Positions 7,795-63,452 of a stretch of 64,000 bases of DNA are shown here, in pieces. The DNA is taken from UHGV virus genome UHGV-0038492, one strand, 5' to 3'. The first letter of the stretch is position 1. The number at the start of each line of letters is the position of its first letter. This stretch comes from a virus. The notes under the pieces were generated by a model. It was not told the DNA's origin, did no database searches, and saw nothing but the letters and a program-made list of their open reading frames with translations. Position numbers and translations under genes: made by a program.

Positions 7795-8438
7795 TGTTGA
7801 TTCCTGAGCCGAGACTTCCCGATAAAATGGTCAGGATCGCGGCGATAGACCCCGGTACGAGCCATCTCGGGATGGCGGTGCTGGATTGGGAATATGGCAG
7901 CGACCAAGCCGAAGTGGTGTGGGCTGATACCATGCACGTATTAGACCCAACACATCCAAGTGCGTTTGCAGAGTGTGTCGGTAAACGCGACGATCGCTTA
8001 GTAAAACTCGAAGCGTGCTACCGTGAGTTTCTTCGGATTGCGCGTCCGACGTTTGTTGCAACAGAAACGCCGTTTATGCGGCGGGCAAAACTCTCCGCGT
8101 ATGAGTCTGGTGTAGAGTTACAGCTGATGTTAAGACGGGCGTTATGGGACGTGTTTCCAGAGAAAGTGTTACACGGGTTCAATCCGATTATTGTAAAATC
8201 ATTCGTCGGTGTGGAAGCGAAAGGAACGGACAAAACAGATATGTTTCGTGCCGTAACGAAGTTGTATCGCGACCACGCGTTGTTTGACATTACAACGTTG
8301 GATGAGCACAGTATCGATGCCGTGGCGGTGGGGAATATCTTTGTCAGGGTAAACCTGTTAAACTTGAATAGTCTCCTACCGCCAAAACAAAAGTCTGCTA
8401 AGACAGCAAAACGGCGGAGAAGACGTCGGAGGAAATAG
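7794..8438 (+). CDS. RuvC-like Holliday-junction resolvase (putative), with a poly-Arg C-terminus
   Basis: N-terminal RIAAIDPGTSHLGMAVLD resembles the RuvC-fold catalytic Asp motif; C-terminus KRRRRRRRK; ATG overlaps the upstream TAA. Confidence 0.5.
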   Translation: MLIPEPRLPDKMVRIAAIDPGTSHLGMAVLDWEYGSDQAEVVWADTMHVLDPTHPSAFAECVGKRDDRLVKLEACYREFLRIARPTFVATETPFMRRAKLSAYESGVELQLMLRRALWDVFPEKVLHGFNPIIVKSFVGVEAKGTDKTDMFRAVTKLYRDHALFDITTLDEHSIDAVAVGNIFVRVNLLNLNSLLPPKQKSAKTAKRRRRRRRK

Positions 8439-8440
8439 CG

Positions 8441-9019
8441 ATGTCGCAACCAACACAAGACGTGTCAGCCGCAATTCTTGACATTCTTATCCAAGCAGGG
8501 AACAGAAAGTTAAGTAAAGAGCAGTCCGAAGAACTGTCTAAGATTCTCAAAGACAACTTCGGTGATGATGTCTCTGTAGACGTAACGCGGTCGGGTACAA
8601 AGATTCTGTCGGAGCTACGCCCAACGCTTCTTGAGAACATTGGAAAGATGGCGGAAAACTTTCAGCAGCAAGCCACAAATGCTGTAGAGAGTTTAGGTGA
8701 CGAAGTAAGCAAAGAAACGATGTTGACACTGTGGCCGAAACTTGCCGGTGCACAGAAGTTCATTATTGTTCTGCTTGCACTCGCCACTGTGGTCGTGACA
8801 GGCTTCTTAGCGTACGACACGCATCAGAACTATCCAACAGACAGTATGGAAGTGTTGTTTGTATCCTTACTTCCGCTGTTCGGACTGGTAGTATTTGCAA
8901 CGTGGCCGATTAAAACGTTGGCTTACAAGTCGTTGGAGATTGCTACCAAAGTTGTCGAGAAGAAACTTGAGAAATCAGGTCAGGTCGTCGCGAAGACGGA
9001 AACAAAGACAACGAAATAA
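8441..9019 (+). CDS. membrane protein (two predicted TM helices)
   Basis: hydrophobic stretches FIIVLLALATVVVTGFLAY and LFVSLLPLFGLVVFATW. Confidence 0.6.
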   Translation: MSQPTQDVSAAILDILIQAGNRKLSKEQSEELSKILKDNFGDDVSVDVTRSGTKILSELRPTLLENIGKMAENFQQQATNAVESLGDEVSKETMLTLWPKLAGAQKFIIVLLALATVVVTGFLAYDTHQNYPTDSMEVLFVSLLPLFGLVVFATWPIKTLAYKSLEIATKVVEKKLEKSGQVVAKTETKTTK

Positions 9020-16479: not shown

Positions 16480-16520
16480 CTCAGATATATATTACCTTAG
16501 TGAGATTACACAGTAATCTC
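16480..16520 (+). promoter_or_regulatory. conserved promoter-like motif TCAGATATATATTACCTTAG followed by a 5' hairpin
   Basis: the same ~19-nt motif recurs at 38019 and 42447, with a variant at 21778; AT-rich upstream, TATATT -10-like core. Confidence 0.45.
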
Positions 16521-25241: not shown

Positions 25242-25772
25242 GTGATAGCACGACTTGTGGGTTGGTTTAAGCAACGTCGTGCAAAGGCGGTCGAATGGCC
25301 GCCTATTACGCATGACGAGAAAGTGGCTCTTTTTTTGGGGTATAACAAAGACTTGGGGAGATTAGGCGAGTTAATGCACTTAACGGAACGCCAGGTTTTT
25401 GCTAAGATTTCGAGCAGCGAGTTGCGTAAAGAAGTAATTCCCCACCTATCCTTTTTAGGGCAGGTTTATGCAAAGACGACAGAGGAATTTTTATCAACCC
25501 AAGGTAGCGAACGGCCACATATTCGGTTTTCCGTCGTAGGTGAACCTGATACGGTAGGTGAAATCGATTTTAAGATGCTGTATCGCAGAATAAAAGATGA
25601 TGGGTTTATACATGTTAAACGATTATCAGAAACTTCTGTGGTGATTTATCATCGCACTGATCAGGATTTGTTAGGGTGTGTTATAAAGCTATCAAATTTA
25701 CATAGTTTTTACGTTGATTTACTTACGGACTTTTATCCAGAACCTTGGTGCTTTATAGATGAAAATAAATGA
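25242..25772 (+). CDS. hypothetical protein (GTG start)
   Basis: 176-codon ORF; no obvious SD. Confidence 0.45.
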   Translation: MIARLVGWFKQRRAKAVEWPPITHDEKVALFLGYNKDLGRLGELMHLTERQVFAKISSSELRKEVIPHLSFLGQVYAKTTEEFLSTQGSERPHIRFSVVGEPDTVGEIDFKMLYRRIKDDGFIHVKRLSETSVVIYHRTDQDLLGCVIKLSNLHSFYVDLLTDFYPEPWCFIDENK

Positions 25773-25971
25773 CGGATATATCATTTCAGCAATCGTTTCA
25801 ACTGCGTTGATTGTAGCGATGTTGATGTTCTACGTTAAGACGTCTGACGAATCACGTAGAGACTCCCTTTATCGTGAATGTATGTCAGGCACTACTGTAG
25901 ATAGCCCACGTTACGCTGAATTAGTAATGGCGTGTACGGAATACGCTAATCGAATGGGAGGAGGGAAATGA
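25759..25971 (+). CDS. small membrane protein
   Basis: single hydrophobic helix ISAIVSTALIVAMLMFYV. Confidence 0.45.
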   Translation: MKINDGYIISAIVSTALIVAMLMFYVKTSDESRRDSLYRECMSGTTVDSPRYAELVMACTEYANRMGGGK

Positions 25972-26165
25972 AAATTTGGTTGCCGATTGTAGTTTTTATC
26001 GTTATTGCAGGGGCTTTAGCGAATGCCGAGTACGACTCTCGTACTTTAGAAACGAAACGTGAATTGTACCAGGACTGTATAAAGGATTATACACCGGGCA
26101 CAGAACTTCATGCGCAAGCTGTAAAAAGCTGTGCGCTGATGGCTGAATCGCAGACTCGTTCCTAA
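25968..26165 (+). CDS. small membrane protein
   Basis: hydrophobic helix IWLPIVVFIVIAGALA; GGAGGG upstream. Confidence 0.45.
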   Translation: MKIWLPIVVFIVIAGALANAEYDSRTLETKRELYQDCIKDYTPGTELHAQAVKSCALMAESQTRS

Positions 26166-30661: not shown

Positions 30662-30742
30662 TAACCCGCTTATAAAAAAAATATTGGGGGGGGGGTAAGC
30701 TACTCCCCCCGATCTTTAGCTCCCGATAGAGAACTTAATATC

Positions 30743-38018: not shown

Positions 38019-38060
38019 TCAGATATATATTACCTAGAGGAGAGCGAAATTTACATTCGC
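38019..38060 (+). promoter_or_regulatory. promoter-like motif TCAGATATATATTACCTAG plus hairpin
   Basis: exact copy of the motif at 16480 and 42447. Confidence 0.45.
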
Positions 38061-42446: not shown

Positions 42447-42496
42447 TCAGATATATATTACCTAGGTGAGAGTTCAGCTACTCTCACTTAACTAAA
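42447..42496 (+). promoter_or_regulatory. promoter-like motif TCAGATATATATTACCTAG plus hairpin plus TTAACTAAA
   Basis: exact motif copy; hairpin gtgagagt-tcagct-actctcac. Confidence 0.45.
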
Positions 42497-46130: not shown

Positions 46131-46979
46131 ATGTCTCTTACGTCAAAACAGAAACTGCTAAAACTCATCAACACTGAAAACAATATTATTCCACCGTTGA
46201 CTTTCAGTGATGTTGAAATCGGGGAACCTACCGGTACTGGGGTTGATACCCAGGTGGTTCTGACCTCTAAACTTAAAGGCGATGAGTCTACTACTTTAAC
46301 AGTGACTTACCACCGTCGTAACTTACCTGACTACCTAACCGGTGAGTTGGTATTCGGTAACGACAGTGTGGTAACCGCATCAGATTTGCTTAATGCGATT
46401 AACGCAAAATACAACCTAAATATTTTACCCTCGGATATCGTTGACGCAAAAGTTGAAGGCGAAACCCATCAGCTTACCGCTAACGAGAAATCTTACGAGT
46501 GGTGCGGTGTAGTAACGCTTACGCTGCGCGATCCTATTGACCTGACTGAACTGTTACCGGTTACTCAATTAGAGAATCTGGTAGAGTATCCGTCCACGAA
46601 GAAAGGTAACGCGGCGGTTTATTCTCACCCGATTGATTTCACCGCAGAAAAAGATTACCTTGACCCGATTACTATCAACGACGCTGTAGACTTGGTAGAA
46701 TTAGCTACTAAACTGGATAGCGTCGTTGACGAGAAATGGGTAAGCGTACCTAAGAACGCGGCTAACAACCTGTACGGAGCGAAGATTATTTACGATGGTC
46801 CAACCGCAGGTTACGAAGGCGCAAATACGAAGTTCACTCGTGTGTTGGTGCTAACACTCAGCCCGCTGTGTTCTAACCTGACCGGTAACCTGTTAATTCA
46901 CTTTAACGGGACCGATCGTCCGAAGTCGAAGATTGAATTAGCACAGACTAATCCGGTCTTACCGGGATTCTTAGATTAA
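46131..46979 (+). CDS. member of the six-gene structural-protein paralog family
   Basis: DLLNAINAKYNLNILPSDIVD aligns with the NLQPEDL motif of 26665 and 36829. Confidence 0.55.
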   Translation: MSLTSKQKLLKLINTENNIIPPLTFSDVEIGEPTGTGVDTQVVLTSKLKGDESTTLTVTYHRRNLPDYLTGELVFGNDSVVTASDLLNAINAKYNLNILPSDIVDAKVEGETHQLTANEKSYEWCGVVTLTLRDPIDLTELLPVTQLENLVEYPSTKKGNAAVYSHPIDFTAEKDYLDPITINDAVDLVELATKLDSVVDEKWVSVPKNAANNLYGAKIIYDGPTAGYEGANTKFTRVLVLTLSPLCSNLTGNLLIHFNGTDRPKSKIELAQTNPVLPGFLD

Positions 46980-46992
46980 GAGGATTACAGTA

Positions 46993-47472
46993 ATGGCCAA
47001 TCAAGAAACTATCTTCGACCTTATTAAAAAGGCTAACCCGGACGCTGAGTTCGACACCACCAAAGTCACACTGGGTGAACCGGTTGTGACCACCGGTACT
47101 TACAATACCGAAATTACGGTTGCGTCGATTAAGAATCTCGGTTATGTTAATAAGCAAACGTTCCAGTATAACCGCATTGACGCAGGTTTGTATTTCCTGA
47201 ACGTATTACCGAAATTGTTGGTAGAATCTGCAACGACTACCGCTGACTTACTGCCCGTCATTAACGAGCAGTACAGCCTAACCCTTACAGAAGACGACGT
47301 GTGGGTAGAACAGGTTGGTGAGTTACCGTTAGACGGTAGCGCAATCGAACACGGTATTTTCTTCCGTCCTGAGTGTCTGACCTGGGTTGGTGGTTTTACA
47401 GTGCGTGTTGCGCGTAAACCGGCTGACGCCACACCGCCAAAGACGGCGTCTCGCGCTAAAAAGAAAAAATAA
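46993..47472 (+). CDS. member of the six-gene paralog family; Lys-rich C-terminus
   Basis: ADLLPVINEQYSLTLTEDDV motif; N-terminus parallels 46131. Confidence 0.55.
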   Translation: MANQETIFDLIKKANPDAEFDTTKVTLGEPVVTTGTYNTEITVASIKNLGYVNKQTFQYNRIDAGLYFLNVLPKLLVESATTTADLLPVINEQYSLTLTEDDVWVEQVGELPLDGSAIEHGIFFRPECLTWVGGFTVRVARKPADATPPKTASRAKKKK

Positions 47473-47476
47473 TCAC

Positions 47477-47511
47477 AGGGTGGGGTAATCCCCACCCTCT
47501 TTTCTTTTTTG
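47477..47511 (+). terminator. intrinsic terminator
   Basis: hairpin agggtgggg-taat-ccccaccct plus T-run. Confidence 0.7.
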
Positions 47512-47534
47512 TGTAAAATAGGAGTTAAACGAAA

Positions 47535-48125
47535 ATGGCCGAACGTTGGACTAAAGAAGGTATTATTGAATCCAAAACCGATTTGGAAGGTGGGTACGTC
47601 AACGACCCTGACGACAAAGGTGGAGAAACCTGTCACGGGGTAACACTGACAACTGCACGCGAATACGGGTACAAAGGAAGAATGAAAGATCTGACCCGTG
47701 CGCAAGCGTTTGACATTTACGATCGTGGTTGGTGGAAGAAACTTAAACTCGATGAGATTTTCGCTATCTCGCCGATACTCGCCGACCGGATGTTTGATTT
47801 TGCTATTAACTCTGGCCGTGTTAACTGTGTGAAGTCATTACAACGTATTCTCAACGTTTTAAATAACGAAGGGAAACTTTACGCAGATATTGACACCGAC
47901 GGTGGTATGGGACCTAAAACACTAGGTGCTCTGAATGCTTATCTAAATTACCGTAAAGGCGAGGGATTAGGCATCTTAATCTTTGCGTTAATCTCACACC
48001 AGGTAACCTACTACACGGAAATCTCCGAAAAGCGTAAGAAGAATGAAAAATTCGCTTACGGCTGGTACGGACGTGTGTACAGGGAAATGCCGGATTATGT
48101 AGTGAAGGCGGGGTTAGTAAAATGA
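47535..48125 (+). CDS. endolysin: GH108-type lysozyme-like domain with C-terminal peptidoglycan-binding region
   Basis: N-terminal LEGGYVNDPDDKGGETCHGVT matches the GH108 signature; C-terminal GPKTLGALNAYL fits a PG_binding_3-type region. Confidence 0.7.
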   Translation: MAERWTKEGIIESKTDLEGGYVNDPDDKGGETCHGVTLTTAREYGYKGRMKDLTRAQAFDIYDRGWWKKLKLDEIFAISPILADRMFDFAINSGRVNCVKSLQRILNVLNNEGKLYADIDTDGGMGPKTLGALNAYLNYRKGEGLGILIFALISHQVTYYTEISEKRKKNEKFAYGWYGRVYREMPDYVVKAGLVK

Positions 48126-48226
48126 ATTGGTTTGCTAAACTCTTAGCGTTATTGTGGAAAGCGTTAACGTCTGGTCGAAAACGTAAAGACGAAAAACGTG
48201 GGCAAGAATTCTTCTGGTTTTTGTAA
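48122..48226 (+). CDS. possible 34-aa peptide overlapping the endolysin stop (not in the ORF track)
   Basis: ATGA overlap; MNWFAKLLALLWKALTSGRKRKDEKRGQEFFWFL is hydrophobic/amphipathic then basic. Confidence 0.25.
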   Translation: MNWFAKLLALLWKALTSGRKRKDEKRGQEFFWFL

Positions 48227-48241
48227 GGAAAGGTGTGGGTA

Positions 48242-48907
48242 ATGGAAAAGCTTCAATATAAACGTTTAGATGATAAGTGGTTTGTATTAACGGAGGATTA
48301 CCATTATCCGTTTACGTTACGTGAGATTTATCACGACCACGTACACTTAGACCGTGCGGTTTATTTAACCGGTGTATTACCTGACACGCAACTGTGGTTA
48401 ACCGCTCCGAAAGGGTTCGTAACGGACTTAGCGTCGATACCCGAACACTTACAGGGAATTTTCCATCCTGACGGGCCTTGGGCACCGGCTGCGTGTATTC
48501 ACGACTTGTTATACCAGAAATGCAGTACGGAACGTAGCTACCCTATGACGCCCGGTGGAAACGTTTCTCGCATTATCGATAAAGAGTTCGCTGACTTAAC
48601 GTTTCTGCGTATTATGCAGTCGTTAGAAATCTCACCGTATATCTGCCAAACGTTTTATAAAGCCGTTGTAGGATTCGGTTGGGATGCTTACGTAGACCCT
48701 AACGCGAAACCGTCTTATACCACTAACGACTACCGTACGTTAGATTACAATCGAAACTATTTGTTCGTTCGCGAGTTTAAGGAGCCTGCTATTCCTGACC
48801 ACGAACGAGTTGATATCACCACAGGTTGTCCCGTTAATGTCAAATACCTGAACATTAAACGGGCTTTTCTGTCTGGGAGGGAAGATGTTTCATCCAAATC
48901 CGAGTAA
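48242..48907 (+). CDS. hypothetical protein
   Basis: ATG at 48242 after AAGGAAAGG; the track start at 48233 is GTG. Confidence 0.55.
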   Translation: MEKLQYKRLDDKWFVLTEDYHYPFTLREIYHDHVHLDRAVYLTGVLPDTQLWLTAPKGFVTDLASIPEHLQGIFHPDGPWAPAACIHDLLYQKCSTERSYPMTPGGNVSRIIDKEFADLTFLRIMQSLEISPYICQTFYKAVVGFGWDAYVDPNAKPSYTTNDYRTLDYNRNYLFVREFKEPAIPDHERVDITTGCPVNVKYLNIKRAFLSGREDVSSKSE

Positions 48908-49400
48908 CTTTAAAATCAAAGAGTTAGTACCGCAATCGTACATCACCAAATACGGTGATTCTGCAATTCGGTTTATGAACCCGCTGTTAATGATTTCGCT
49001 ACAGCAGATTCGTAACCGTTTCGGCAGAATGGTAATTAACTCGTCTGCTGCGCAACAACGTGGTTTAAGAACCTTAGACTTTTTCATCAACCAAGAAAAG
49101 CCTAAGGGTGGTAACTATAAACAACGTGCTTTACAACTCTATTCCGATTCAGGAAGTCAGCACAAGTTCGGTAACGCGTTCGACGCAACATTGTTAGATT
49201 CAACGGTAAAACAAGTCCACGATTACATCGCCGCCAATCCTGATGAGTTTCCGTTTATTCACTTTATTGAATGCGACATCAGTTGGTTACATATCGATGT
49301 TCGTAACCAACCGAATATCACGTTCTGGTCACCGAATCGGGGTACTGTGAAAGTCGCGAAACAAAGCCCTATCGATTGGAGCGCCTTAGTTAAAATCTAA
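48885..49400 (+). CDS. peptidase M15-like zinc metallopeptidase (peptidoglycan peptidase type)
   Basis: SQHKFGNAFDAT fits the SxHxxGxAxD zinc-binding motif and a later WLHIDVR fits the second His motif; GGGAGGG upstream. Confidence 0.5.
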   Translation: MFHPNPSNFKIKELVPQSYITKYGDSAIRFMNPLLMISLQQIRNRFGRMVINSSAAQQRGLRTLDFFINQEKPKGGNYKQRALQLYSDSGSQHKFGNAFDATLLDSTVKQVHDYIAANPDEFPFIHFIECDISWLHIDVRNQPNITFWSPNRGTVKVAKQSPIDWSALVKI

Positions 49401-49493
49401 GCGCATATTCCTTAACTTAGGGTGATTGTACCTTATTTTGTATAAACCGTCTTAGAACGCGTTCTAGCGCGCTCTACGGACAAAATAAACCTA

Positions 49494-49524
49494 CCCTCCT
49501 GCTTAGCAGGAGGGTATTTATTAT
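49494..49524. terminator. bidirectional terminator between convergent genes
   Basis: hairpin ccctcctgc-ttag-caggaggg plus T-rich tail. Confidence 0.6.
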
Positions 49525-50000
49525 TCTACCGGGTGCAGCATAGTGCCGGTATCTGGAATGCTGCCTTCGTGACATCTGAAGAACGTTACACCTTTACCTT
49601 CACCTGTTTTGTAGTTGATGGTAGAATACGCAAACGTTGGGGTTTTCGACAGTAACCCGTTTACACGGTAATAGCGCTCACCGGTAACAACGTTTAAGTT
49701 ACCGTCCACTTTACCTAACAGGTCTTTATAAAGTTGCGGAGATTCAATTTTACCTTCGTCCCATGTAGCGACCCAATTCGCTCCTGTATCCATGACTAAC
49801 ACCGAAAGGGGCATCAGTTTTAGGCTAGACGGTACCGGTTTAAAATCAGCGAATTCTTGAGAAGCACCTGTACAGGTGTAAATGACCATATCGTGTTGGT
49901 CAACAGGTACGGTGGAGAACTGACCTTCTGCGTTCGGCTGAATAGCACAACTTGCCAATGTCATTACAAAAGCAACGACCACGAGAATGCGTTTTAGCAT
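49521..50000 (-). CDS. lipoprotein (signal peptide with lipobox LASC)
   Basis: ATG at 50000 after AAGGA; MLKRILVVVAFVMTLASCA; the track start at 50060 is TTG. Confidence 0.6.
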   Translation of the reverse strand: MLKRILVVVAFVMTLASCAIQPNAEGQFSTVPVDQHDMVIYTCTGASQEFADFKPVPSSLKLMPLSVLVMDTGANWVATWDEGKIESPQLYKDLLGKVDGNLNVVTGERYYRVNGLLSKTPTFAYSTINYKTGEGKGVTFFRCHEGSIPDTGTMLHPVE

Positions 50001-50139
50001 AATCTCATCCTTATTAAAATTAAGAAAAATTAATTTTTTCAGGTTAGCGCTTACTGCCAACCGTCATATCTATATTTTAGGAAATGTCTAAAATAACATT
50101 CTTATGCAATCCACCCCTGCCACTTACGAGGTAAAAACG

Positions 50140-50676
50140 ATGGCTAAAGCCTTCAAACAGCAGCTCATCGAAGCTGTAATTGCTAAAAACTCAGAAACCG
50201 CTTCTAATCTGACGGTTGCTGATGTTGATTTTGGCGCTGTTGCTGAGTTCAGCGGAGACGCTGGCCGCAACACTAAAATTACCCTGACCGCCAAGGCAGA
50301 AAGCCAGAACTTCAAAGGCGAGAAAGAATTCCACTACATTCGTCTGGCTTCTCAAGACCTGATCGGTGCTAAAGCTTACGAACAAGCCGGTAGCCTCGAT
50401 CTGGAAAACTCTGCCATTGTAACCAAACTGAACGAAGAAATGGTTACTAAAGGTTATGTCGATGACGAGTTTGCAGAGAGCGAACTGTCCATTGAGAAAT
50501 CCGAAGGCGACAGCGGTGCTAAAGTTTACACTGTCAAAGTAAGCGAAGGTCACATCAAATTCCTGGCTGGTACCATTGCCACCTTCACTTATTCCAACCC
50601 AGCTCCTGAGAAGGTAGCACTGAGCGGTCTGGAAGGTGAACTTGATGGCTTCACTGCGCCGGGTGTCGGTGGCTAA
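50140..50676 (+). CDS. member of the six-gene paralog family (paralog of 50748..51278)
   Basis: GRNTKITLTAKAESQNFKGEKEFHYIRL and C-terminal GELDGFTA shared with the next gene; ATG at 50140 after GAGGT. Confidence 0.55.
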   Translation: MAKAFKQQLIEAVIAKNSETASNLTVADVDFGAVAEFSGDAGRNTKITLTAKAESQNFKGEKEFHYIRLASQDLIGAKAYEQAGSLDLENSAIVTKLNEEMVTKGYVDDEFAESELSIEKSEGDSGAKVYTVKVSEGHIKFLAGTIATFTYSNPAPEKVALSGLEGELDGFTAPGVGG

Positions 50677-50747
50677 GTAAGTTAAATCGGGGGGGGGGTG
50701 ACCTCCCCCGATATTTCTTTAACTCGTATTATTAAGGACCTAAGATA

Positions 50748-51278
50748 ATGGCCGCTACTAACCAGATGATGTTGGTCGCGCTTTATAATGCTGCTAACAC
50801 TGAGCTACCGCATCAGATTACAGATAAAGAAGTGTCCTTTGGTTTGCCTGCTGCGCTGGAAGGCGAAGGTAAGAATACCAAAGTTACCATGACCGCACTA
50901 CCGGGTTCTGAGAATTTCAAAGGCGAAATCGAACTGCATTACGATCGTCTGGAGCCAGGTGTTGTAGGACGGATTGAACTAACTGACGATCTGTCTCGCT
51001 GGGTTCAAGAAAATGAACTCCGTGCTTGGTTACAGTATTACATCAACAAAGTAAAACCTGACGACGCTATCGCACCAGGCGACGTTGTGTACAACACCGA
51101 AGACCAGAAAGACGAACATGAAAACGTCACTCTGCGTACCGTGACGTGCACCGTTACTGAAAAGAACCTCCGTTATAAACCAGGTGTAATGGCAACTTTC
51201 GTAATTACACCGAAGGTTGTCGATAATCGTATTGACCTGGCCACCACCAACGGTGAGTTGGACGGCTTTACTGCTTAA
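50748..51278 (+). CDS. member of the six-gene paralog family
   Basis: GKNTKVTMTALPGSENFKGEIELHYDRL; C-terminal NGELDGFTA. Confidence 0.55.
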   Translation: MAATNQMMLVALYNAANTELPHQITDKEVSFGLPAALEGEGKNTKVTMTALPGSENFKGEIELHYDRLEPGVVGRIELTDDLSRWVQENELRAWLQYYINKVKPDDAIAPGDVVYNTEDQKDEHENVTLRTVTCTVTEKNLRYKPGVMATFVITPKVVDNRIDLATTNGELDGFTA

Positions 51279-51315
51279 TCGCTAAGTCAACTACTATAAC
51301 AAAAAATAATAAGTT

Positions 51316-51352
51316 TACCTACCTCCGTAAAGGAGGTAGGTATTTTTTTTTG
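51316..51352. terminator. bidirectional terminator
   Basis: hairpin tacctacctcc-gtaa-aggaggtaggta flanked by an A-run and a T-run. Confidence 0.65.
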
Positions 51353-51359
51353 CCGCTAA

Positions 51360-52031
51360 TTACAGCCCTTGCTCTAATGCAAACGCTTTAATTGAATCGT
51401 AATCACGGGCTTCGGCCCAAGCTCTGACTTCTTTTTTCTGTTCCGTCATTGCCTGATGCAGTTGCTGGTCGCGTTGCACAATAGCACCCAGCAGTGTTTT
51501 GCACTGCTCTAACGTAAACGGTTCGATACGGGTGTTGTTGGCCGTTAACCAATACGCTGGCGCGGTTTCTGACTGAATATAACGACTCAGTGCTACCTGT
51601 GACTTCTCATCTGCCTGGAAAGTGAAATCACCCACTTGAATCTCGGCATACCGCGCATCCTGATAACGGAATTCCAATGCGCTTAGGATTTTCTGAACAT
51701 CGGTAAAGATATACCGCACAGTGGAGCGTAAACCCGTACGAATCTCTTCCAGGTCAATTCCCAACGTGTCGTTAACAAAGTCTTTCGCTTTCTGTAACGT
51801 AAATCGTGCTTCGATTTCAGACATGTCGTAGTTACGCATTTGTTCCAATGCTTCACGATCGGACATCCCATCAATCAATTTATAGTGCAGTAACGCACAA
51901 AAACCCGTACGACCATGATCTTCGCTACCGATTTTTTCCATATAGTTACCATGGCGGTCAATCGGTAAATCGTGCTCAAAATAACGACGACGGATTTCTT
52001 CTTTCGTTAAGCCTTCACCAGTAGCAGACAT
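51360..52031 (-). CDS. hypothetical protein, last gene of the radical-SAM cluster operon
   Basis: 223-codon ORF co-oriented with the cluster. Confidence 0.55.
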   Translation of the reverse strand: MSATGEGLTKEEIRRRYFEHDLPIDRHGNYMEKIGSEDHGRTGFCALLHYKLIDGMSDREALEQMRNYDMSEIEARFTLQKAKDFVNDTLGIDLEEIRTGLRSTVRYIFTDVQKILSALEFRYQDARYAEIQVGDFTFQADEKSQVALSRYIQSETAPAYWLTANNTRIEPFTLEQCKTLLGAIVQRDQQLHQAMTEQKKEVRAWAEARDYDSIKAFALEQGL

Positions 52032-52579
52032 TCATCGTCTCCTTTAATCAATCCTAATTCGATTAACAGTTCAAAATCGATATGACGGAATCTTGTATCA
52101 AAATCCGATTCCCAATCGATGCGGATACCCTGGCACTCTTCTGATGTTAGCTCGGGAAAAATTACGGTATTAAATTTCTCACGCTCATCGTAAAACCCAT
52201 CAATCGGTGAGTTCGGGTTACGCGTTGCGAAAATAGTAATACCAGGGAAAGATAATGCTAACACAGTGATAGATTCTGCGCTGGGCTCACTTAAAGAGCG
52301 GCGTAGAAACGCAATTTTGTGGCGTGGGAAGTCCAATACGCGTTCTTCAAACCCTGGATTACGTTTTTCGATTTCCGCTACCGACAGGTCAGTAAGTTCG
52401 GTGCAATACATTGGGATGATTACAGTCACGCCGTGGCGAATCAGTAAACGTTTTACGTCATCGGTAAAATCTTCGCCGTTAATCATCACGTAACAACCGA
52501 ACAGCTTACTGTTTTCCAGAAACTTATCCAGAAGTCGAATTCTACGCTTCGTAATATTGTTGATCAGAATTGGTTTCAT
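52007..52579 (-). CDS. hypothetical protein in the radical-SAM cluster
   Basis: 190-codon ORF; AAGAGAAG upstream of ATG; start overlaps the upstream gene. Confidence 0.5.
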   Translation of the reverse strand: MKPILINNITKRRIRLLDKFLENSKLFGCYVMINGEDFTDDVKRLLIRHGVTVIIPMYCTELTDLSVAEIEKRNPGFEERVLDFPRHKIAFLRRSLSEPSAESITVLALSFPGITIFATRNPNSPIDGFYDEREKFNTVIFPELTSEECQGIRIDWESDFDTRFRHIDFELLIELGLIKGDDECLLLVKA

Positions 52580-53864
52580 CTTTGGCTTCTCTTAATAATT
52601 TTTCCTTTTGGGCGCGTTCACGAACACAGCGTGGGCAATAACACATACTCGTGTCGTGGAACGCTTTTGCTGACGTCGTACCCATCTTCTGTTTCCAGTA
52701 TTCCGCCACCATCAGTTTCGCTGTCGTCCACCCGCACTGACGTCGCTCAGCGTGATACGCTTTACGGTCTTCCAGTGTCCCTTCACCGTTTTCGTAAGAA
52801 GCCGCAGCGCAGCTACCACAAGCGTGTTTCATCGGACAACCTAAGCACGTCTCTGGATAGTTGGTATATTGTGTTTGAATCTCTTCTAACAATTTACCGT
52901 TGTCCAGGCTGACGAATTCCCGACCTACCAACTCAAATACCGCAGAACGTGATGTTACGGTTGACATAAAGCGATTGCAACCGAAGATCTTACGGTCAAA
53001 ACCTAAACACGTCATGTGTGTTAATGTCCCACAGAACGGACGTAAACGTTCTGGGTTCAACCGCACCGTGTCATTATAAAGTAATTGATCACGCCAGTTC
53101 GGTTCCCAAATCGTATCGAAATCCAACCCTTCTGGGATGATGTGCGATAAGATATTACGTGGGTTGGTGTGTAATCCTTTCTCGACCCAATAATCAATCA
53201 CATCCATCATCTGCAATGCAATTGAAGTAGCCATCCCACGTGGCATAATGTCTTCGAAGGTTACGTTGCCGGAGATAGTTCCGCCACCAGTAATATCAAT
53301 TAATGACTTCATTCCGGCAGCATAGTACGGTAACGTTTCTAACGTAAAGGTCGCCTTTACGCCAAGCTCTGCAATGCCAACCTCTTTTAAGTAGTTATAG
53401 CCTCGTACTGCGGCTTCGTAAGAACCCTGGCGCGTCGTTGTAAAGATACGATAACGGTCATGGGACTCAGGTAAGCCGTCAATTGAAACCCCAACCGAAA
53501 GTTTGTCTTTCCAACGCTCTACGATCTCACGGTTCAACGGGCGATCTAACAACGTCCCGTTTGTGGAAATACTAAACATAAACGGCCGATTATGTTCTTT
53601 ACACAACTGCTCGGCGGTTTCAAATGCAGCCAGCAGCAACTTAGGCTGCATGAACGGTTCACCACCGATAATGTCAATAATAACTTCAACATTCGGTTCG
53701 TTTTTATCGCGTTCAAAACAGGCGTGCAAGAAATCAACAATATCTGCCGCTTTGTTGTTACGCGGGTACTTACGTTCGTAACAATATTCGCAGTCCAGGT
53801 TACACGAAAGGTTCGTTACAATCTGATACGTTAGCTGCTTAGGGAATTCATTTACCTGACTCAT
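52542..53864 (-). CDS. radical SAM enzyme with SPASM-type C-terminal Cys-rich domain (anSME/peptide-maturase-like)
   Basis: CNLDCEYC (CxxxCxxC) at residues 21-28, GGEP SAM motif, C-terminal cysteines in CGTLTHMTC...GC and CLGCPMKHACGSC; GAGGGG upstream of ATG. Confidence 0.8.
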   Translation of the reverse strand: MSQVNEFPKQLTYQIVTNLSCNLDCEYCYERKYPRNNKAADIVDFLHACFERDKNEPNVEVIIDIIGGEPFMQPKLLLAAFETAEQLCKEHNRPFMFSISTNGTLLDRPLNREIVERWKDKLSVGVSIDGLPESHDRYRIFTTTRQGSYEAAVRGYNYLKEVGIAELGVKATFTLETLPYYAAGMKSLIDITGGGTISGNVTFEDIMPRGMATSIALQMMDVIDYWVEKGLHTNPRNILSHIIPEGLDFDTIWEPNWRDQLLYNDTVRLNPERLRPFCGTLTHMTCLGFDRKIFGCNRFMSTVTSRSAVFELVGREFVSLDNGKLLEEIQTQYTNYPETCLGCPMKHACGSCAAASYENGEGTLEDRKAYHAERRQCGWTTAKLMVAEYWKQKMGTTSAKAFHDTSMCYCPRCVRERAQKEKLLREAKDETNSDQQYYEA

Positions 53865-54771
53865 TTGCCGCCCCTCTATTACGACCTGCCATCACTACGC
53901 GACGAATATATTCGTACGCCTCTACACCGATAGAGAAGGCCAGTTGGTTACACCCGGATTCCAGTACGTTAGGTGCGTTCTGGAGCTGGTGCTCACCACC
54001 GTCTGCATTAATCCAGAGACTTTCGCTGCAAACGTTACACCCTTCTTCAAACACTTTACTTACCGTAAAACCACATTCACGACTGTTTACTACATTCAGT
54101 CGTTCAATGTTGTCCTGAACCCGATAGTAGCCGTAAATAAAGTTCATGACGTGGTCAGGTGATAAAGGCTTTGGCATTTTCGCATCTAAGAGTAACGTCA
54201 TTGCTCGGAAACCGTAATGGTAAATCGCGCTGTGCAGCTGAATAATATCTTCATGCCAACGTTTATCCCCCAAACGGTCCCGTGTCAAGACACCCCAAGT
54301 CTGGACATTATCCAGCTCGTAGATCGTTTCCAGTGCTTCGTAACAGCCTTCGTCAATAAAGCGCATAAATGGACGCTCAGACGACTTAAACCCATCGATG
54401 CTAACGTAGACATTGTCAAACTGTTTTAGCAACGGGAGATGCGATTTACGCATCTTTAAGCCATTGGTATACAACTGGTGTTTGAGTTCTGGACGAATCA
54501 CTTTTAATTCGTCAACAAACGCCTCAATTTTACGGGTTGCCAATAGTGGCTCACCACCCGTCCACTGAATTTCGGTAATGGTTGGATTAGCTTCCAGCGC
54601 TTCCAAAATTCGCTCACGTTGAAACTCTCGCGGAGAATCTTCACGATTCATGTAATAGGCTCCACCGCAGAAGCTACAATCCAGGTTACACTTGGACGTA
54701 GCGACTACGGACAATACGGTGGGTTTATCGTATAAACGATTCGATAACCTTGGTTCTGCATTGGTTGTCAT
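53848..54771 (-). CDS. radical SAM enzyme (paralog, shorter Cys-containing C-terminus)
   Basis: CNLDCSFC at residues 28-35, TGGEPLL motif, C-terminal CGF...CNVC. Confidence 0.75.
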   Translation of the reverse strand: MTTNAEPRLSNRLYDKPTVLSVVATSKCNLDCSFCGGAYYMNREDSPREFQRERILEALEANPTITEIQWTGGEPLLATRKIEAFVDELKVIRPELKHQLYTNGLKMRKSHLPLLKQFDNVYVSIDGFKSSERPFMRFIDEGCYEALETIYELDNVQTWGVLTRDRLGDKRWHEDIIQLHSAIYHYGFRAMTLLLDAKMPKPLSPDHVMNFIYGYYRVQDNIERLNVVNSRECGFTVSKVFEEGCNVCSESLWINADGGEHQLQNAPNVLESGCNQLAFSIGVEAYEYIRRVVMAGRNRGAANESGK

Positions 54772-58268: not shown

Positions 58269-61200
58269 TTAAGATGTAAACATAAGATTGAACTGGAGTT
58301 TGTCGATATCGCGAGTTTCTGCTGGATTCACACCATCGTACGCGGTCGCTACGTAAACCGTTAGCGTGCCGTTAGCGTAAGACGATTTCACCGGTGGGTT
58401 AGTTCCAGTCTGACCATCTCGCACAATGAGTGTAGGTTCACTTGGGAGATTATCAAACTGACCCTTGACCGCTTTATACACCAAACCAGATTGCGCAGAC
58501 AGTTCAGTGTCCGTAAAGACAAAGAACGGTGTGTCGATATCAGCCTGTTTAATCGTGGTACCGGTCTCGACGTCAATCAACTGTACCGCCCCAAACTTCG
58601 TACGATAACTTTCATACTCGTTCTTCGGAATAACGAACGTGACGTGAACGCGAACCTCCTCGGCAGGTTTAAACCCAGCGTGCTCTTTTTCCAGGTACTG
58701 GTTGGCGGTTAACGTGACGTCCTGCTCTTTCATCGTACCACCGGCCTGGTTTAATGCATAGCGAGCTTCAACAATACCGGTTGGCGCAGCAAGTCGCAGT
58801 TTCAGAGCACGATTTGCCGTTCCTGGATTACCTGGCACCTGAACGCGCAAACTCAATGCTAAGTAAACATTCGTTCCGGTAGTCGGTTTCGTATACGCAC
58901 CAATCCATTTCATGTTCGCAGACGCTGCCTGCGTGTTCTCAGAAGCAGTGGCTGTCGCAATGTTAGCAGCTACCGCTTTCTGCCAGAATTGGTCAGCGCA
59001 GTTCTCATACGCTACCCTGGCCACGCTCTTATAACCCGAATACGTTTCCTGAATTGGTAACTTAGGACGCGTCGTAATACCAGACAATGAACCCCATTTT
59101 TGACCGTCAACATACCCTTCGCCCTTCGACGCAGACGCCGTAGGCGCTTTAACGGGTTTGTTAACCAGTGTTAATAGAGGACCCGTCTTTCTGTCAAACG
59201 CTGCTGCAACATCATGTTGGTCGATAATTGCTGCGTGGTCTTCCAGTTCTTTCACACGACCCAAACGTTTTACTTTGTCGATGTTGATACCAGTAATACG
59301 GCTGGAATCGGTGGTTACTGACCCGACGAACAGTCTTGTTGAAGTGTCAGCTAACTGCTCCAAACCGATACGGTATTGCGCAGTAGAACCTGACACCTCA
59401 GCGTGCACGTAGAACGTCTGGTTAGCGTGGTTAGACGGGAATTCGCTGCTTAAATCCACAGACCACGTTGGGAGTGTGTAACTGCTGCTACCGAAGTCTA
59501 ACTTGACTTCTTCTGTCAAATACAGAATCCAGCCTTCTGCTGTCTCCACACCGGCAATAATAACAGCCTGACCTCCGGTTGAGAACCTCGTGTCGTTAAC
59601 GAACTCTGCGGCTGTATACGCGTTACCTGAACAGAAAACACGGTCAGCTTTAGAGTAAATCAACGCCATCTTGTCCCAATTACCCGCACCCATATAGCAC
59701 CCAGATTCTGGGTTATGTGCAGGGGCCATCTGTCGTAACTGTGACTTACCAGGAACGCGAGACCAACCTGAACCTGGGTCGTAGGTATACTTCGCGGCGT
59801 AACCTAGTGCATTTAAGTCCCCGATATTTCGGATAGTTAACGTATAAGGTAGCCAAATACCGAAGTTTACACCGTCGGCAGAAGCAAAAATTGGCTGACC
59901 GACACGTCGTGTTTTATTACCCGCTTCTTCCCTCAGAGACTGATAACTTAAACCATAATCGAGGTCTAAGAACCAGTCCACCAACTTAAAGGTGGCTGAG
60001 TTGAAACGTAAGTAGCCGTTCTCTTTAGATGGACTCACCATGAAGTAATAGATGTCAAGAATTCGACGTCCGTTACTTGAGGTTTTCATGCACGAAACTT
60101 GCAACAAGTCAAATTCGCACACGGTGTTGATACCCAACATCCAAAGAGCAAACAGTGCATTACCGGTTTGATGTGCAGCACTGATGCGCTCATTCGCGTA
60201 ACCATTTGCTTGACCAGATGGCGCACCGTCAACGATCATCCGAATCATTTTCTGACGATCGGCTTCTTCTAGCGTTAAGCGTTCGGAAGACAATGCGAAA
60301 TTACCGTAGATGTTACGATACGGGAACGTTTCTGCTTTGGTCAAATACCAACCGTTTAGCTGCCCGTGACGCTCCTCAGGAGTCATGCACGCAGCCATAC
60401 AGCTAAGCTGCTCGTAGAGCGTTGGATCGACTTCACGACGGTTGTTGTTCGGACCGTATCCGCTATAACCCGGAACATCGTAAGGTTTGTTCGGATCAAC
60501 TTCTACTTCGATGGTGTAACGGTTACGTGGGTTAGACAACCACACTTTATTCGAACCGCCTATTCCGACAGGATGGGAAAGACCGATGGTGTAAATAGAA
60601 CCGCGACCTTTATCCCAGGTAAACGTTCCTTCGCCCGAGGTGTTGTTTGGGTTATCGTAACGCAGATAATCGAAAAGCTCTTTGCCTTGTGTACCCTTAA
60701 TAGAAACATTAGGCATTTGGTCCGCATCGTTAATCTGCCAGCAGGAAAGCATCATTCCTGTACCGTTAGGTTTTGCATACGTCGCGAAACAACGGTTGTT
60801 TGCCTGACCACCACCCCACTTACGACTGGTTTCTACAGTTGAACCATCCGCGAACGAGAGTGCAGTAGCATCAGCCTTGATGGGGAAGCGTTCGCGGCCT
60901 TCTAACGTAACCTTGCCCGTCAACGTATCGATTGTAAAACTTGTTGCCCATTGACGAAAGTTAATTTGTGAGCTGTCGGCCGCTGCAAACCACACAGTAG
61001 GCATATGGTTCACACGAATCACGCTTTCGCGTACCGCACACGCGTGGTTACATTCTGGCCCGTGAACAAAGTTGTGGCCAATTGTCCATTTAGCCCGTGC
61101 TTCCGGCGTCAAATACGTAAAGAATTGACCCGTCTGCGACTCTTCGGTTTTCTGGCCAATACGTAGGCAGAGGTTATCTCCGAATTGTCCCATTTCACCG

Positions 61201-63452
61201 GTTAGTGTTACACGTTCAAATTCTAACGTAGTGTTAGTAGACAAATCGTCTTTACGTAAGCGCCATGCTGCAACAGCGTAAGCAGAGTTATTTACCGTGG
61301 AGCGGAGAAGATAAACATAGTCCTCAACCAACACAACGTCATCGGCTTCTGGCCACGGATTCCAGGTTTGTTCTGTAGTACCGCTGGGGTTACCGTTACG
61401 GTACATAGGCATCGTGACACGACATACCACCGTGTGTTTAGTGTGGTCCATCGAACCATTAAACAGCACCAAATAACGATTATTGTCAGAACCCAGGCAA
61501 ATAATCGCTTCCTGACCACCGATCAATATCGCTTTTAGGGTCACTCCAGGATATTTACTCATCCCGGCAGGGTGATATTTCACTGAGGTCTGCTGCGGAT
61601 TTACAAACGCGTTTGAGGTGTTAATGTCCGCGTAGCCGTAATAAATGGCTTCTGTACCCGGCACGCCATTAGAACCGTTACGTAGCGAATAAACCTTACC
61701 CTGCTGATACCCAACAACCCCTTTCTGGTAAGACTGGTTTTTGGTATAGCCCGCGTAGTTACCTAACGCTGGGATAGGTAAGAAGTTCTTATTACCGAAC
61801 TTCGCACCGCCTACCGTCCATGCCGGTAAGATGGTATTCAGTTTATCAGAGACTTTCTTAATCTCTTTTGCGAACAACCACCCTTGACGTGACGTGACAG
61901 CTTTATCATTAGTGGTGTCAATTGCATCCCACAGCTGTAAGACACCGTCAACCGTTGCACTACCAATTGGGACGTTATCCAAGTCAGCAGTGGTGTGGGT
62001 GTGCGTTTTCAAACTCTTGTTTTTCAACACGTTCGTTAACGCTTTTGTCACAGGCTTAGCACTCGGTATGGTGTTATCCATCTTATCGATACCGAAATCG
62101 GTTTTCGTTAAGGTTAACACCATCTTGTCGCCCGTCTTAACAAACCCTTTACCGTTAACGGTATAGTCATCGTCAACGTACAGGTCCAAACGGTCTTTTA
62201 GTTCGGTTACGGCTTTCTGGGAGATGGCAGTACCTAACGCCGCAGACGTAGAGATGTTCGTAATCGAGAACAACCCATAAACTGATTCGGACGCTGTGGG
62301 AATATTCGCGTTTAACGTGACCGGGTTAGTCTGTTTTGCAGTACCGTACGGTTTTACGGTGTCTGACGCTTTGAAATACGCGTTTGCTTCAAGCAACGTT
62401 ACTGACGTCAGATACATGTTCACCATTTCTGGCGTGACCAGGTACACGGAGTTATAAACCGGTGCTAATACATCCTGTTCTGACCCCGAGTGAACCCAAA
62501 GCGTATTCAGACCCGCACTAAACTCCACCGCTAAACCTGATTCGTTATTGTCCTGGTCTGCTTTAATCACTAACGGTTGCGGTGAGGTAATTAACCACTT
62601 ATCACCACGAATACTGATGATGTGACCACCTGACGTTTTAAACGTTAATTCATTACCGTTCGTGGTACCCCATCGACCGTAAACAGTACCGAGGGCTTCA
62701 CCCATTAACTGATCAACGTCGGATTGCTCGATACCCGCTGAACCCATCAGCGTAGCCAATTCGTCAATCGTCAACCCAAATGCTTTTGTGGCGTCAACAG
62801 CGCGTCCTAATACGGGGAGAGCAGCAACGTCGTCAGTGGTATAGTGATGCGCGTTAGGGTTACGGTGATGCTGGTATAATTCTTCGTCGAAAACCTTTTT
62901 CCCGTTCTCGTAAATCAGGTTAGTGACTTCGCTAAACGCAGCATCCAACTCCGTAGAACGCTTAATGATTTTCTTGCGAATGTCTTCTAACGCCTTAACA
63001 ACCTCGTCCCTCAGAATCGCTTCTTCTAAGTTAGCAGGCGGGTCGATAGGCTGAATAACCGGCGCATACGCCATTAGTTCAGACCAGTCCACGTTACGTG
63101 GGTCTTTCAGGTCAGTACGAACTAAGAACTTCCCGATTTCAGATTGTGGTACACGGTATTGTCGTGCTACCCCTAAAATCTCATATTCGATTTCTGTTGC
63201 GGTAAGCAACATAAACCCGCCATAAATCTGATCTTGCTCAGCTTCGGCGAGTTCTTTAAAGTAATAGCCTAAATAGTAGTCCAACCCCTCAATCAGAGTA
63301 CGACGTCCGTTAGGCGCGGTATCGTCGGCTACTGTGAGTTTTAATCCGATACGATAAAAAGGTCCTTCAGGCGGAATGACCACGTTAAATCGGTTAGGGT
63401 ACGTCGCTGTGCTTAACGTACCGTTAAACTGCGCCGCGTCTTCTCTCGGCAT
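58269..63452 (-). CDS. very large structural protein (1727 aa), probably tail fibre/host-specificity protein
   Basis: AGGAG upstream of ATG; N-terminal PPEGPFY motif parallels the 399-aa protein. Confidence 0.7.
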   Translation of the reverse strand: MPREDAAQFNGTLSTATYPNRFNVVIPPEGPFYRIGLKLTVADDTAPNGRRTLIEGLDYYLGYYFKELAEAEQDQIYGGFMLLTATEIEYEILGVARQYRVPQSEIGKFLVRTDLKDPRNVDWSELMAYAPVIQPIDPPANLEEAILRDEVVKALEDIRKKIIKRSTELDAAFSEVTNLIYENGKKVFDEELYQHHRNPNAHHYTTDDVAALPVLGRAVDATKAFGLTIDELATLMGSAGIEQSDVDQLMGEALGTVYGRWGTTNGNELTFKTSGGHIISIRGDKWLITSPQPLVIKADQDNNESGLAVEFSAGLNTLWVHSGSEQDVLAPVYNSVYLVTPEMVNMYLTSVTLLEANAYFKASDTVKPYGTAKQTNPVTLNANIPTASESVYGLFSITNISTSAALGTAISQKAVTELKDRLDLYVDDDYTVNGKGFVKTGDKMVLTLTKTDFGIDKMDNTIPSAKPVTKALTNVLKNKSLKTHTHTTADLDNVPIGSATVDGVLQLWDAIDTTNDKAVTSRQGWLFAKEIKKVSDKLNTILPAWTVGGAKFGNKNFLPIPALGNYAGYTKNQSYQKGVVGYQQGKVYSLRNGSNGVPGTEAIYYGYADINTSNAFVNPQQTSVKYHPAGMSKYPGVTLKAILIGGQEAIICLGSDNNRYLVLFNGSMDHTKHTVVCRVTMPMYRNGNPSGTTEQTWNPWPEADDVVLVEDYVYLLRSTVNNSAYAVAAWRLRKDDLSTNTTLEFERVTLTGEMGQFGDNLCLRIGQKTEESQTGQFFTYLTPEARAKWTIGHNFVHGPECNHACAVRESVIRVNHMPTVWFAAADSSQINFRQWATSFTIDTLTGKVTLEGRERFPIKADATALSFADGSTVETSRKWGGGQANNRCFATYAKPNGTGMMLSCWQINDADQMPNVSIKGTQGKELFDYLRYDNPNNTSGEGTFTWDKGRGSIYTIGLSHPVGIGGSNKVWLSNPRNRYTIEVEVDPNKPYDVPGYSGYGPNNNRREVDPTLYEQLSCMAACMTPEERHGQLNGWYLTKAETFPYRNIYGNFALSSERLTLEEADRQKMIRMIVDGAPSGQANGYANERISAAHQTGNALFALWMLGINTVCEFDLLQVSCMKTSSNGRRILDIYYFMVSPSKENGYLRFNSATFKLVDWFLDLDYGLSYQSLREEAGNKTRRVGQPIFASADGVNFGIWLPYTLTIRNIGDLNALGYAAKYTYDPGSGWSRVPGKSQLRQMAPAHNPESGCYMGAGNWDKMALIYSKADRVFCSGNAYTAAEFVNDTRFSTGGQAVIIAGVETAEGWILYLTEEVKLDFGSSSYTLPTWSVDLSSEFPSNHANQTFYVHAEVSGSTAQYRIGLEQLADTSTRLFVGSVTTDSSRITGINIDKVKRLGRVKELEDHAAIIDQHDVAAAFDRKTGPLLTLVNKPVKAPTASASKGEGYVDGQKWGSLSGITTRPKLPIQETYSGYKSVARVAYENCADQFWQKAVAANIATATASENTQAASANMKWIGAYTKPTTGTNVYLALSLRVQVPGNPGTANRALKLRLAAPTGIVEARYALNQAGGTMKEQDVTLTANQYLEKEHAGFKPAEEVRVHVTFVIPKNEYESYRTKFGAVQLIDVETGTTIKQADIDTPFFVFTDTELSAQSGLVYKAVKGQFDNLPSEPTLIVRDGQTGTNPPVKSSYANGTLTVYVATAYDGVNPAETRDIDKLQFNLMFTS

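Follow-up and report, generated by a model that had tools for sequence, protein, structure and literature searches.

Small lipoproteins that are made in the infected cell and probably anchored in the outer membrane are known from several phages, among them Llp of T5 and Cor of phi80, N15 and T1-like phages. Their genes are classically positioned right after a tail fibre gene and its chaperone, and cognate receptor-blocking lipoproteins swap together with the receptor-binding protein, as between T5 and BF23. The bor gene of phage λ forms a reverse-oriented, self-contained unit beside the lysis genes, and the o-spanins (λ Rz1, T4 PseT.2 and CR5_184-type proteins) are outer-membrane lipoproteins with periplasmic cysteines that are encoded near an endolysin gene. 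A different activity is represented by T4 Spackle and the bacterial MliC, PliC and PhiA proteins, which inhibit peptidoglycan hydrolases. To our knowledge, nothing is known of how the Chimalliviridae handle secondary infection at the cell envelope, and a 2026 review of jumbo-phage biology is silent on superinfection, spanins and lipoproteins. Our study examined a stretch of 64 000 nucleotides from the virus genome UHGV-0038492 (hereafter the window), which carries a lone lipoprotein gene on its minus strand at 49521-50000. The product is predicted to be a β-barrel lipoprotein of the outer membrane, which we tentatively read as a factor that protects the infected cell or the phage progeny at the level of the envelope.

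The lipoprotein gene runs from an ATG at 50000 to a TAA at 49523-49521 (Table 1). The initial annotation had listed a 160-aa protein; the open reading frame (ORF) itself stands, although it counts 159 codons plus the stop, and a longer TTG-started version (from 50060, 179 aa) is unsupported, as every homologue aligns from the ATG. In the N-terminal sequence, MLKRILVVVAFVMTLASC, K3 and R4 make the n-region basic, the hydrophobic core spans ~10 residues and the lipobox reads L15-A16-S17-C18; Cys18 is predicted to be the lipidated first residue of the mature lipoprotein. The classic lipobox (LASC) recognized at the outset was borne out by an alignment of 15 diverse family members, in which C18 is invariant and L15 is at least 90 % conserved. 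No other ORF within the window has a credible lipobox. In the Lol sorting of enterobacteria, Asp at position +2 after the lipobox cysteine is the inner-membrane retention signal. The window has Ala at this position, and every homologue has Ala, Val or Ser rather than Asp; by the sorting rule, the non-Asp residue predicts outer-membrane sorting, and the lipoprotein is probably delivered to the outer membrane in a Lol-dependent manner.

Homologues of the lipoprotein were found by tblastn in 56 phage genomes. This distribution, the invariant cysteines, the mostly synonymous change and a G+C content like that of the window (0.454 for the ORF and 0.45 for the window) indicate that the gene is real. 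Compared with 96 %-identical relatives, 12-16 codons had changed synonymously and 4 non-synonymously, and by this measure the gene is under purifying selection. The residues that are invariant in the 15 diverse members are C18, C43, G73, R109, Y111, R112, S126, G133, G135 and C143. The region is collinear at the protein level with Salmonella phage SPN3US (Seoulvirus) and with the Erwinia phages Asesino, phiEaH2 and Wellington. The SPN3US-like relatives are jumbo phages of ~240 kb that belong to the nucleus-forming Chimalliviridae, and, judged from gene content and order, the window is derived from a phage of this kind. At the megablast level, the 2025 phage collection held no DNA near-identical to positions 47000-52000. 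The orthologues are SPN3US gp159 (original numbering), Asesino gp174, Wellington gp172 and, at 33 % identity, Goslar gp088. The lipoprotein is 54 % identical to its counterpart in SPN3US, 59 % in Asesino and 48 % in Wellington; the corresponding values are 62, 64 and 53 % for the endolysin encoded nearby and 46, 45 and 37 % for the adjacent gp160-like head protein. The lipoprotein is thus 48-59 % identical across phages of Salmonella, E. coli, Proteus and Erwinia, which is comparable to the endolysin and the DUF1353 protein, and on these values its evolution is unlike that of a host-range determinant.

The family is small: 13 clusters (90 % identity) were found in 5.8 billion proteins, and a set of 1.84 billion yielded 14 representatives. 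Three of the 14 representatives (P0018, P0019 and P0022) carry gp159 blocks in reversed order, or 21 fragments in a 'protein' of 5404 aa, and look like exon-style gene-prediction artefacts on phage DNA rather than family members. The distant library homologues P0016, P0017 and P0025 had no match in IMG/VR, and the contig of P0017 is 646 bp long. Neither the protein nor its 13 + 6 homologues matched anything in Pfam, NCBIfam or PADLOC, even at E values up to 10, and a sequence-profile search of the PDB returned only noise (E ≥0.09). The lipoprotein is assigned to PHROG 9559, which is listed as 'unknown function', and the 'DUF2846' label carried by the homologue in pEa_SNUABM_43 could not be reproduced in a family-profile scan. 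The lipoprotein is annotated only as hypothetical or as 'Lipoprotein', and its family and fold are unrelated to the known examples, though its kind is familiar.

The AlphaFold2 model of the precursor (mean predicted local distance difference test (pLDDT) 79.6, predicted template modelling score 0.68) begins with a signal helix. Residues 18-22 form a disordered tether, confidence stays low as far as residue ~27, and an all-β domain of ten strands follows. The pLDDT of the β-domain is mostly 83-93, and residues 149-159 are disordered. The mature part, which has 142 residues and contains 6.4 % Pro, is thus predicted to be a small β-barrel of ~120 residues on a tether of ~10 residues. C43 lies in the first long strand and C143 in the last, so that a Cys43-Cys143 disulfide is probable, and the short tether would place the barrel at the inner face of the outer membrane. 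Foldseek searches of BFVD returned family members and a few unnamed viral barrels only.

Furthermore, the evidence strongly indicates that the lipoprotein gene is a transcription unit of its own. It is the only minus-strand gene between the plus-strand genes at 48885-49400 and 50140-50676, as the initial annotation had seen, and both its own Shine-Dalgarno sequence and the two-way terminator that it shares with the convergent gene can be read from the sequence. The terminator hairpin at 49492-49516 is a 12-bp perfect inverted repeat with a G+C-rich stem of 11-12 bp and a T-run past the stem on either strand; its folding energy is -28.4 kcal/mol (z = -5.8), a stability not reached by any of 200 shuffles. 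Late promoters of phiKZ have the form 5'-TATG-3', with the G as +1, and are used by the non-virion RNA polymerase (PMC4666361). The motif (A/G)TATGAC at 50068-50063, on the lipoprotein strand, keeps its register between the window and SPN3US, Asesino and Wellington and occurs in Machinavirus too, and may be a late-type promoter with its start at the G of TATG. However, TATG is not enriched upstream of the genes of the window (~10 of 30 upstream regions, roughly chance), so that the promoter call depends solely on the conservation of TATGAC across genera. Another motif in the window, (T)CAGATATATATTACCT, is AT-rich, strongly conserved and much stronger than TATG, and is found after a terminator hairpin and before a gene at 16487-16496, 38025-38034 and 42453-42462 on the plus strand. 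It agrees with what has been described for the early promoters of jumbo phages, which serve the virion RNA polymerase (PMC7598289), and the lipoprotein gene has no such early-type motif.

Comparison of gene order among the phages revealed that the lipoprotein gene almost always stands alone against the direction of the late genes around it. Close relatives have an identical arrangement. Wellington has the entire block [gp160-like <- -> lipoprotein <- DUF1353 <- small ORF <- endolysin] in inverted orientation, and in Machinavirus the endolysin block is relocated while the lipoprotein gene is still divergent from gp160-like genes and convergent with head-protein genes; the opposite orientation is therefore kept through both rearrangements. 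In Goslar the neighbours seen in the window are not nearby, and gp088 lies directly downstream, on the same strand, of the P1 S-like tail fibre gene gp090 and the chaperone gene gp089. CR5 keeps the surrounding genes and is missing the lipoprotein gene, and tblastn found no homologue in Derbicus, EarlPhillipIV and Phobos, which also keep the surrounding genes. Its absence from the CR5/Derbicus lineage despite the retained neighbours marks the gene, on comparative grounds, as an old but dispensable accessory gene of the clade; exclusion genes are dispensable as well. SPN3US gp159 has no row in the mass spectrometry table of virion proteins, whereas gp155 and gp160 have rows (Table S4 of PMC5105663), which strongly indicates that the lipoprotein is non-structural, i.e. 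not a virion protein.

Taken together, a non-virion, dispensable lipoprotein on a short tether, encoded by a self-contained unit among late genes and, in Goslar, behind a tail fibre gene, has the profile of a protection factor. We therefore favour, as possible rather than probable, the broad model of an envelope-level exclusion or protection factor. The protein would be exported, lipidated at Cys18 and delivered by Lol to the outer membrane of the infected cell, and the β-barrel would act at the inner face of this membrane, in the periplasm. The envelope would thereby become refractory to further phage entry, which could serve superinfection exclusion, spare the progeny dead-end adsorption to debris, or both. 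As the lipoprotein is conserved in phages of different host genera and SPN3US is reported to use the flagellum, a conserved target is favoured over a specific surface receptor. Such a target would likely be a host envelope component or a conserved part of the penetration machinery of the incoming phage, and a strain-specific surface receptor would be unlikely. Several points weigh against this model. The lipoprotein has no homology to known exclusion proteins (Pfam, NCBIfam, PHROG function, PADLOC), its fold is generic, with no Foldseek match in the PDB at E ≤0.001, and its neighbours in the window are head proteins and lysis enzymes rather than receptor binders. Literature searches turned up no paper that mentions SPN3US gp159 or a Goslar lipoprotein, and no experimental report on any family member. 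In addition, a late-type promoter, if real, would be less typical of exclusion than early expression, although it would fit the protection of progeny.

The initial annotation had proposed a narrower function, in which the lipoprotein masks a receptor and thereby excludes superinfecting phages. In its strict, Llp/Cor-like form, the lipoprotein would bind and inactivate the periplasmic face of the outer-membrane receptor of the phage. This is compatible with the predicted outer-membrane lipoprotein on a short tether, with the lone gene in opposite orientation, with its dispensability in some lineages and with the tail fibre and chaperone genes that adjoin the Goslar orthologue. As a small lipoprotein from a lone accessory gene that is dispensable in some lineages and in Goslar lies behind tail-fibre genes, it resembles Llp and Cor. 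The adjacency to receptor-binding genes, on which that proposal had drawn, was mistaken for the window: the DUF7941 neighbours are head proteins, and the baseplate or tail-fibre candidates (SPN3US gp168-170 class) are at 58269-63452 and beyond, >8 kb from the lipoprotein gene. An identity of 48-59 % across host genera is that of a core gene and shows no co-variation with host or receptor, in contrast to the swapping of cognate receptor-blocking lipoproteins. The lipoprotein also resembles Llp and Cor neither in sequence nor in fold and, with 142 mature residues against roughly 60, is about twice their size; its gene is flanked by head-protein and lysis genes in the window and in SPN3US. Moreover, the receptor of SPN3US has been reported to be the flagellum (PMC11428620), which a periplasm-facing lipoprotein could not mask. 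What remains of the proposal is a lipoprotein gene that forms a lone reverse unit beside lysis and virion genes, and we consider the masking of a specific receptor unlikely.

The placement of the gene between lysis and structural genes was upheld, with a GH108 endolysin and an M15-type peptidase on one side and DUF7941 virion proteins on the other (Table 1). The ~20 members of SPN3US paralog family B are head proteins and occur in tailless particles (PMC5694885; Table S4 of PMC5105663), and gp160 is among the most abundant of these in SPN3US (Table S4 of PMC5105663). Beyond 50140, two small DUF7941 genes on the plus strand are followed by a DUF4376 gene and then by two radical-SAM genes on the minus strand. 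The first of these DUF7941 genes was listed as an ORF from 50104; its true start is most likely 50140 (MAKAF..., with a good Shine-Dalgarno sequence), and the ATG at 50104 lies within a conserved, promoter-like TATG motif.

Table 1. Features of the lipoprotein locus and its neighbourhood in the window (aa, amino acids; PG, peptidoglycan)
Feature	Position	Strand	Remarks
Lipoprotein precursor coding sequence, 159 aa	49521..50000	-	Orthologue of SPN3US gp159, Asesino gp174, Wellington gp172 and Goslar gp088
Predicted signal peptide and lipobox, residues 1-18, MLKRILVVVAFVMTLASC	49947..50000	-	Lipobox codons L15-C18 at 49958-49947
Shine-Dalgarno sequence AAGGAT	50007..50012	-	AAGGA (50012-50008), 7 nt 5' of the ATG, read directly from the sequence
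Two-way intrinsic terminator hairpin	49492..49516	both	Common to the convergent M15-like gene (+) and the lipoprotein gene (-)
Divergent intergenic region, 139 bp	50001..50139		Common to the lipoprotein gene and the gp160-like head-protein gene
TATGAC motif, ~65 nt 5' of the start codon	50063..50068	-	Putative phiKZ-type late (non-virion RNA polymerase) promoter
Second conserved TATG, 50101-50104 (TTCTTATGCAAT)	TTATGC, 50100-50105	+	Register kept between the window and SPN3US, Asesino and Wellington; also in Machinavirus
GH108 endolysin with PG-binding domain	47535-48125	+	
34-aa cationic amphipathic ORF, MNWFAKLLALLWKALTSGRKRKDEKRGQEFFWFL	48122-48226	+	ATGA overlap with the endolysin stop codon
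DUF1353 protein	48242-48907	+	
M15-type peptidase, 171 aa, SxHxxGxAxD motif (SQHKFGNAFD)	48885-49400	+	PHROG 'endolysin' match
Four DUF7941 genes flanking the lysis block	46131-47472 and 50140-51278	+	Correspond to SPN3US paralog family B

On the lysis side, the M15-type protein at 48885-49400 is 78 % identical to SPN3US gp158, a virion protein from outside the head (PMC5105663). As gp158 is in virions but absent from tailless heads, the product of 48885-49400, encoded downstream of the soluble GH108 endolysin, is likely to be a tail-associated cell-wall peptidase. The small ORF MNWFAKLLALLWKALTSGRKRKDEKRGQEFFWFL that follows the endolysin gene encodes an amphipathic helix with a basic tail; it has counterparts in SPN3US (unannotated, locus positions 7978-8085, minus strand) and Asesino (gp172), and Wellington and Machinavirus have a similar-sized ORF after the endolysin. 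Its product may act on the membrane as a lysis peptide, of the disruptin or holin-accessory type.

This neighbourhood raises the alternative of a periplasmic peptidoglycan-hydrolase inhibitor, like T4 Spackle or bacterial MliC/PliC/PhiA, in which the anchored barrel would block a muralytic enzyme. Candidate targets would be the tail-associated lysin of a superinfecting phage or, until lysis, the phage's own GH108 and M15 enzymes. As PhiA is a PliC/MliC-type hydrolase inhibitor and the lipoprotein gene lies beside genes for muralytic enzymes, an MliC/PliC alignment was built for profile comparison. The design of the lipoprotein is MliC-like: besides the lipobox, it has 'Y-x-C' in the first strand, T-G-E-R-Y further on and a Cys in its last strand. 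In SPN3US-like phages the gene converges with the GH108 endolysin/DUF1353/M15-peptidase block, and the M15-like gp158 is found in virions, outside the head. However, the profile comparison was not significant. The hhalign probability of 43 % against the MliC/PliC alignment came from the signal peptides only and fell to 0.45 % (E 0.13) when these were removed; the weak alignment of the mature domains paired Y-T-C with Y-Q-C and T-G-E-R-Y with S-G-A-R-Y. No member matched PF09864, the family of MliC, PliC and PhiA, by hmmscan at E values up to 10. The lipoprotein is also ~40 residues longer than these proteins, with extra strands, and the signature motifs SxSGAxY and YxxxTKG are not conserved. 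Membership of the MliC/PliC family was therefore rejected, and a loose architectural resemblance remains. Among the phages, Asesino and Wellington have the lipoprotein without the M15 gene and CR5 has the M15 gene without the lipoprotein, and in Machinavirus and Goslar the gene is not beside the endolysin. In a co-occurrence comparison, the presence of the lipoprotein did not follow that of the M15-like gene, of the endolysin or of the gp160-like gene. We regard inhibition of a hydrolase as improbable.

The same neighbourhood could point to a role in lysis, as an outer-membrane partner of the o-spanin kind or as some other regulator of the last step of lysis. An outer-membrane lipoprotein that adjoins the endolysin block in SPN3US-like phages, with a possible late-type promoter, would suit such a role, and like the o-spanins the lipoprotein has periplasmic cysteines. 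Curated spanin architectures consist of adjacent pairs or, rarely, of genes ~700 bp apart, and the o-spanin Rz1 of λ depends on a Pro-rich region (PMC6139136). No i-spanin-type ORF is adjacent to or near the lipoprotein gene, the only ORFs of the window with a transmembrane domain (TMD) being those at 8441, 25759 and 25968, and the confidently folded, Pro-poor barrel contrasts with the Pro-rich Rz1. Moreover, a scan of the SPN3US genome revealed an adjacent, spanin-like pair of genes at 180017-180487 and 180497-180976. The first encodes a protein with a TMD at the N-terminus, a coiled coil and a tail rich in Pro, and the second a lipoprotein with the lipobox LTGC. The equivalent pair in CR5, also with LTGC, is CR5_183/184 (168815-169786), and the pair was present in all 73 relatives found. 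CR5 was listed by Kongari et al. among the 'separated' two-component spanins (PMC6139136), and CR5 lacks the lipoprotein. In the Enterobacter copy of the window lineage (NZ_CP134650.1, 27153-28115), the o-spanin homologue starts MKMLLFIMILCVGLVSNSYG and is without a canonical lipobox. In that genome the anchor in the outer membrane could come from another protein, which is a point in favour of a lysis role. The lipoprotein was nevertheless rejected as an o-spanin, given the lack of a nearby i-spanin, the folded Pro-poor barrel, the separate pair of the clade and its absence from CR5. The spanin-type identity that the initial annotation had set against its own proposal accordingly fails, and a role in lysis is, in our view, very improbable.

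The distribution of the phage lineage bears on a further alternative. The exact protein, or a variant of 97-98 % identity, is found on contigs of 220-227 kb in many assemblies of Salmonella serovars and E. coli isolates and in metagenomes. The lineage also occurs as a circular 'plasmid' of 222,441 bp in a complete Enterobacter ludwigii genome (NZ_CP134650.1), with 97-98 % protein identity at the locus. These 'plasmid' and isolate-assembly copies suggest that the lineage frequently persists in cultured isolates in a carrier state or by pseudolysogeny. The lipoprotein could then be a host-modifying 'moron' like λ Bor and would alter envelope properties, to the benefit of a host that carries the phage genome long-term. 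The large contigs and the 222-kb 'plasmid' speak for this, as does the reverse-oriented, self-terminated unit beside lysis genes, which is shared with λ bor. A weak σ70-like site (TTGGCA-16-TG-AAAAAT) also lies 33 nt upstream of the gene, but it is not conserved in relatives, and σ70-like sites were no commoner than in shuffles. The upstream motif that is conserved is phage-late-like rather than a host promoter, and transcription in the Chimalliviridae has been reported to be independent of the host RNA polymerase (PMC4666361). The native composition of the gene and its age within the clade are likewise at odds with a moron, no homology to Bor/Iss was found, and, unlike λ, the phage has no known lysogeny. 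We judge a Bor-like function to be distinctly improbable.

Our study also recorded features elsewhere in the window. The two adjacent radical-SAM genes beyond the DUF4376 gene (52542-54771, minus strand) are conserved across the clade and are 82 % and 69 % identical to those of SPN3US. Two tandem, overlapping small ORFs at 25759-25971 and 25968-26165 on the plus strand encode proteins of 70 and 65 aa with no PHROG match, each with an N-terminal transmembrane or signal segment and a cysteine pair in a short C-terminal domain. Terminator-like hairpins at 50686-50712 and 30662-30742 have unusual stems made of G10/C-rich runs (GGGGGGGGGGTGACCTCCCCC), which are reused between late genes.

In summary, a lipoprotein that is conserved, dispensable, non-virion and without relatives outside its clade is a well-defined candidate for an envelope-level exclusion or protection factor, and genetic tools are available for SPN3US and Goslar. 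If it had no such effect, it would be an ordinary hypothetical accessory gene. The family could be the first envelope-level system of superinfection exclusion or progeny protection of nucleus-forming jumbo phages, formed by undescribed β-barrel lipoproteins and directed at a conserved entry step rather than at a variable receptor, although we consider this doubtful. Candidate targets would then be the tail-associated cell-wall hydrolase of an incoming phage or the outer-membrane part of the flagellar or another entry route. Were related phages to be excluded, this would matter for cocktails with SPN3US-like phages and would add a family to the short list of envelope-exclusion systems. If true, the lipoprotein might also have a part in the apparent persistence of these phages over long periods in Salmonella, E. 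coli and Enterobacter isolates.

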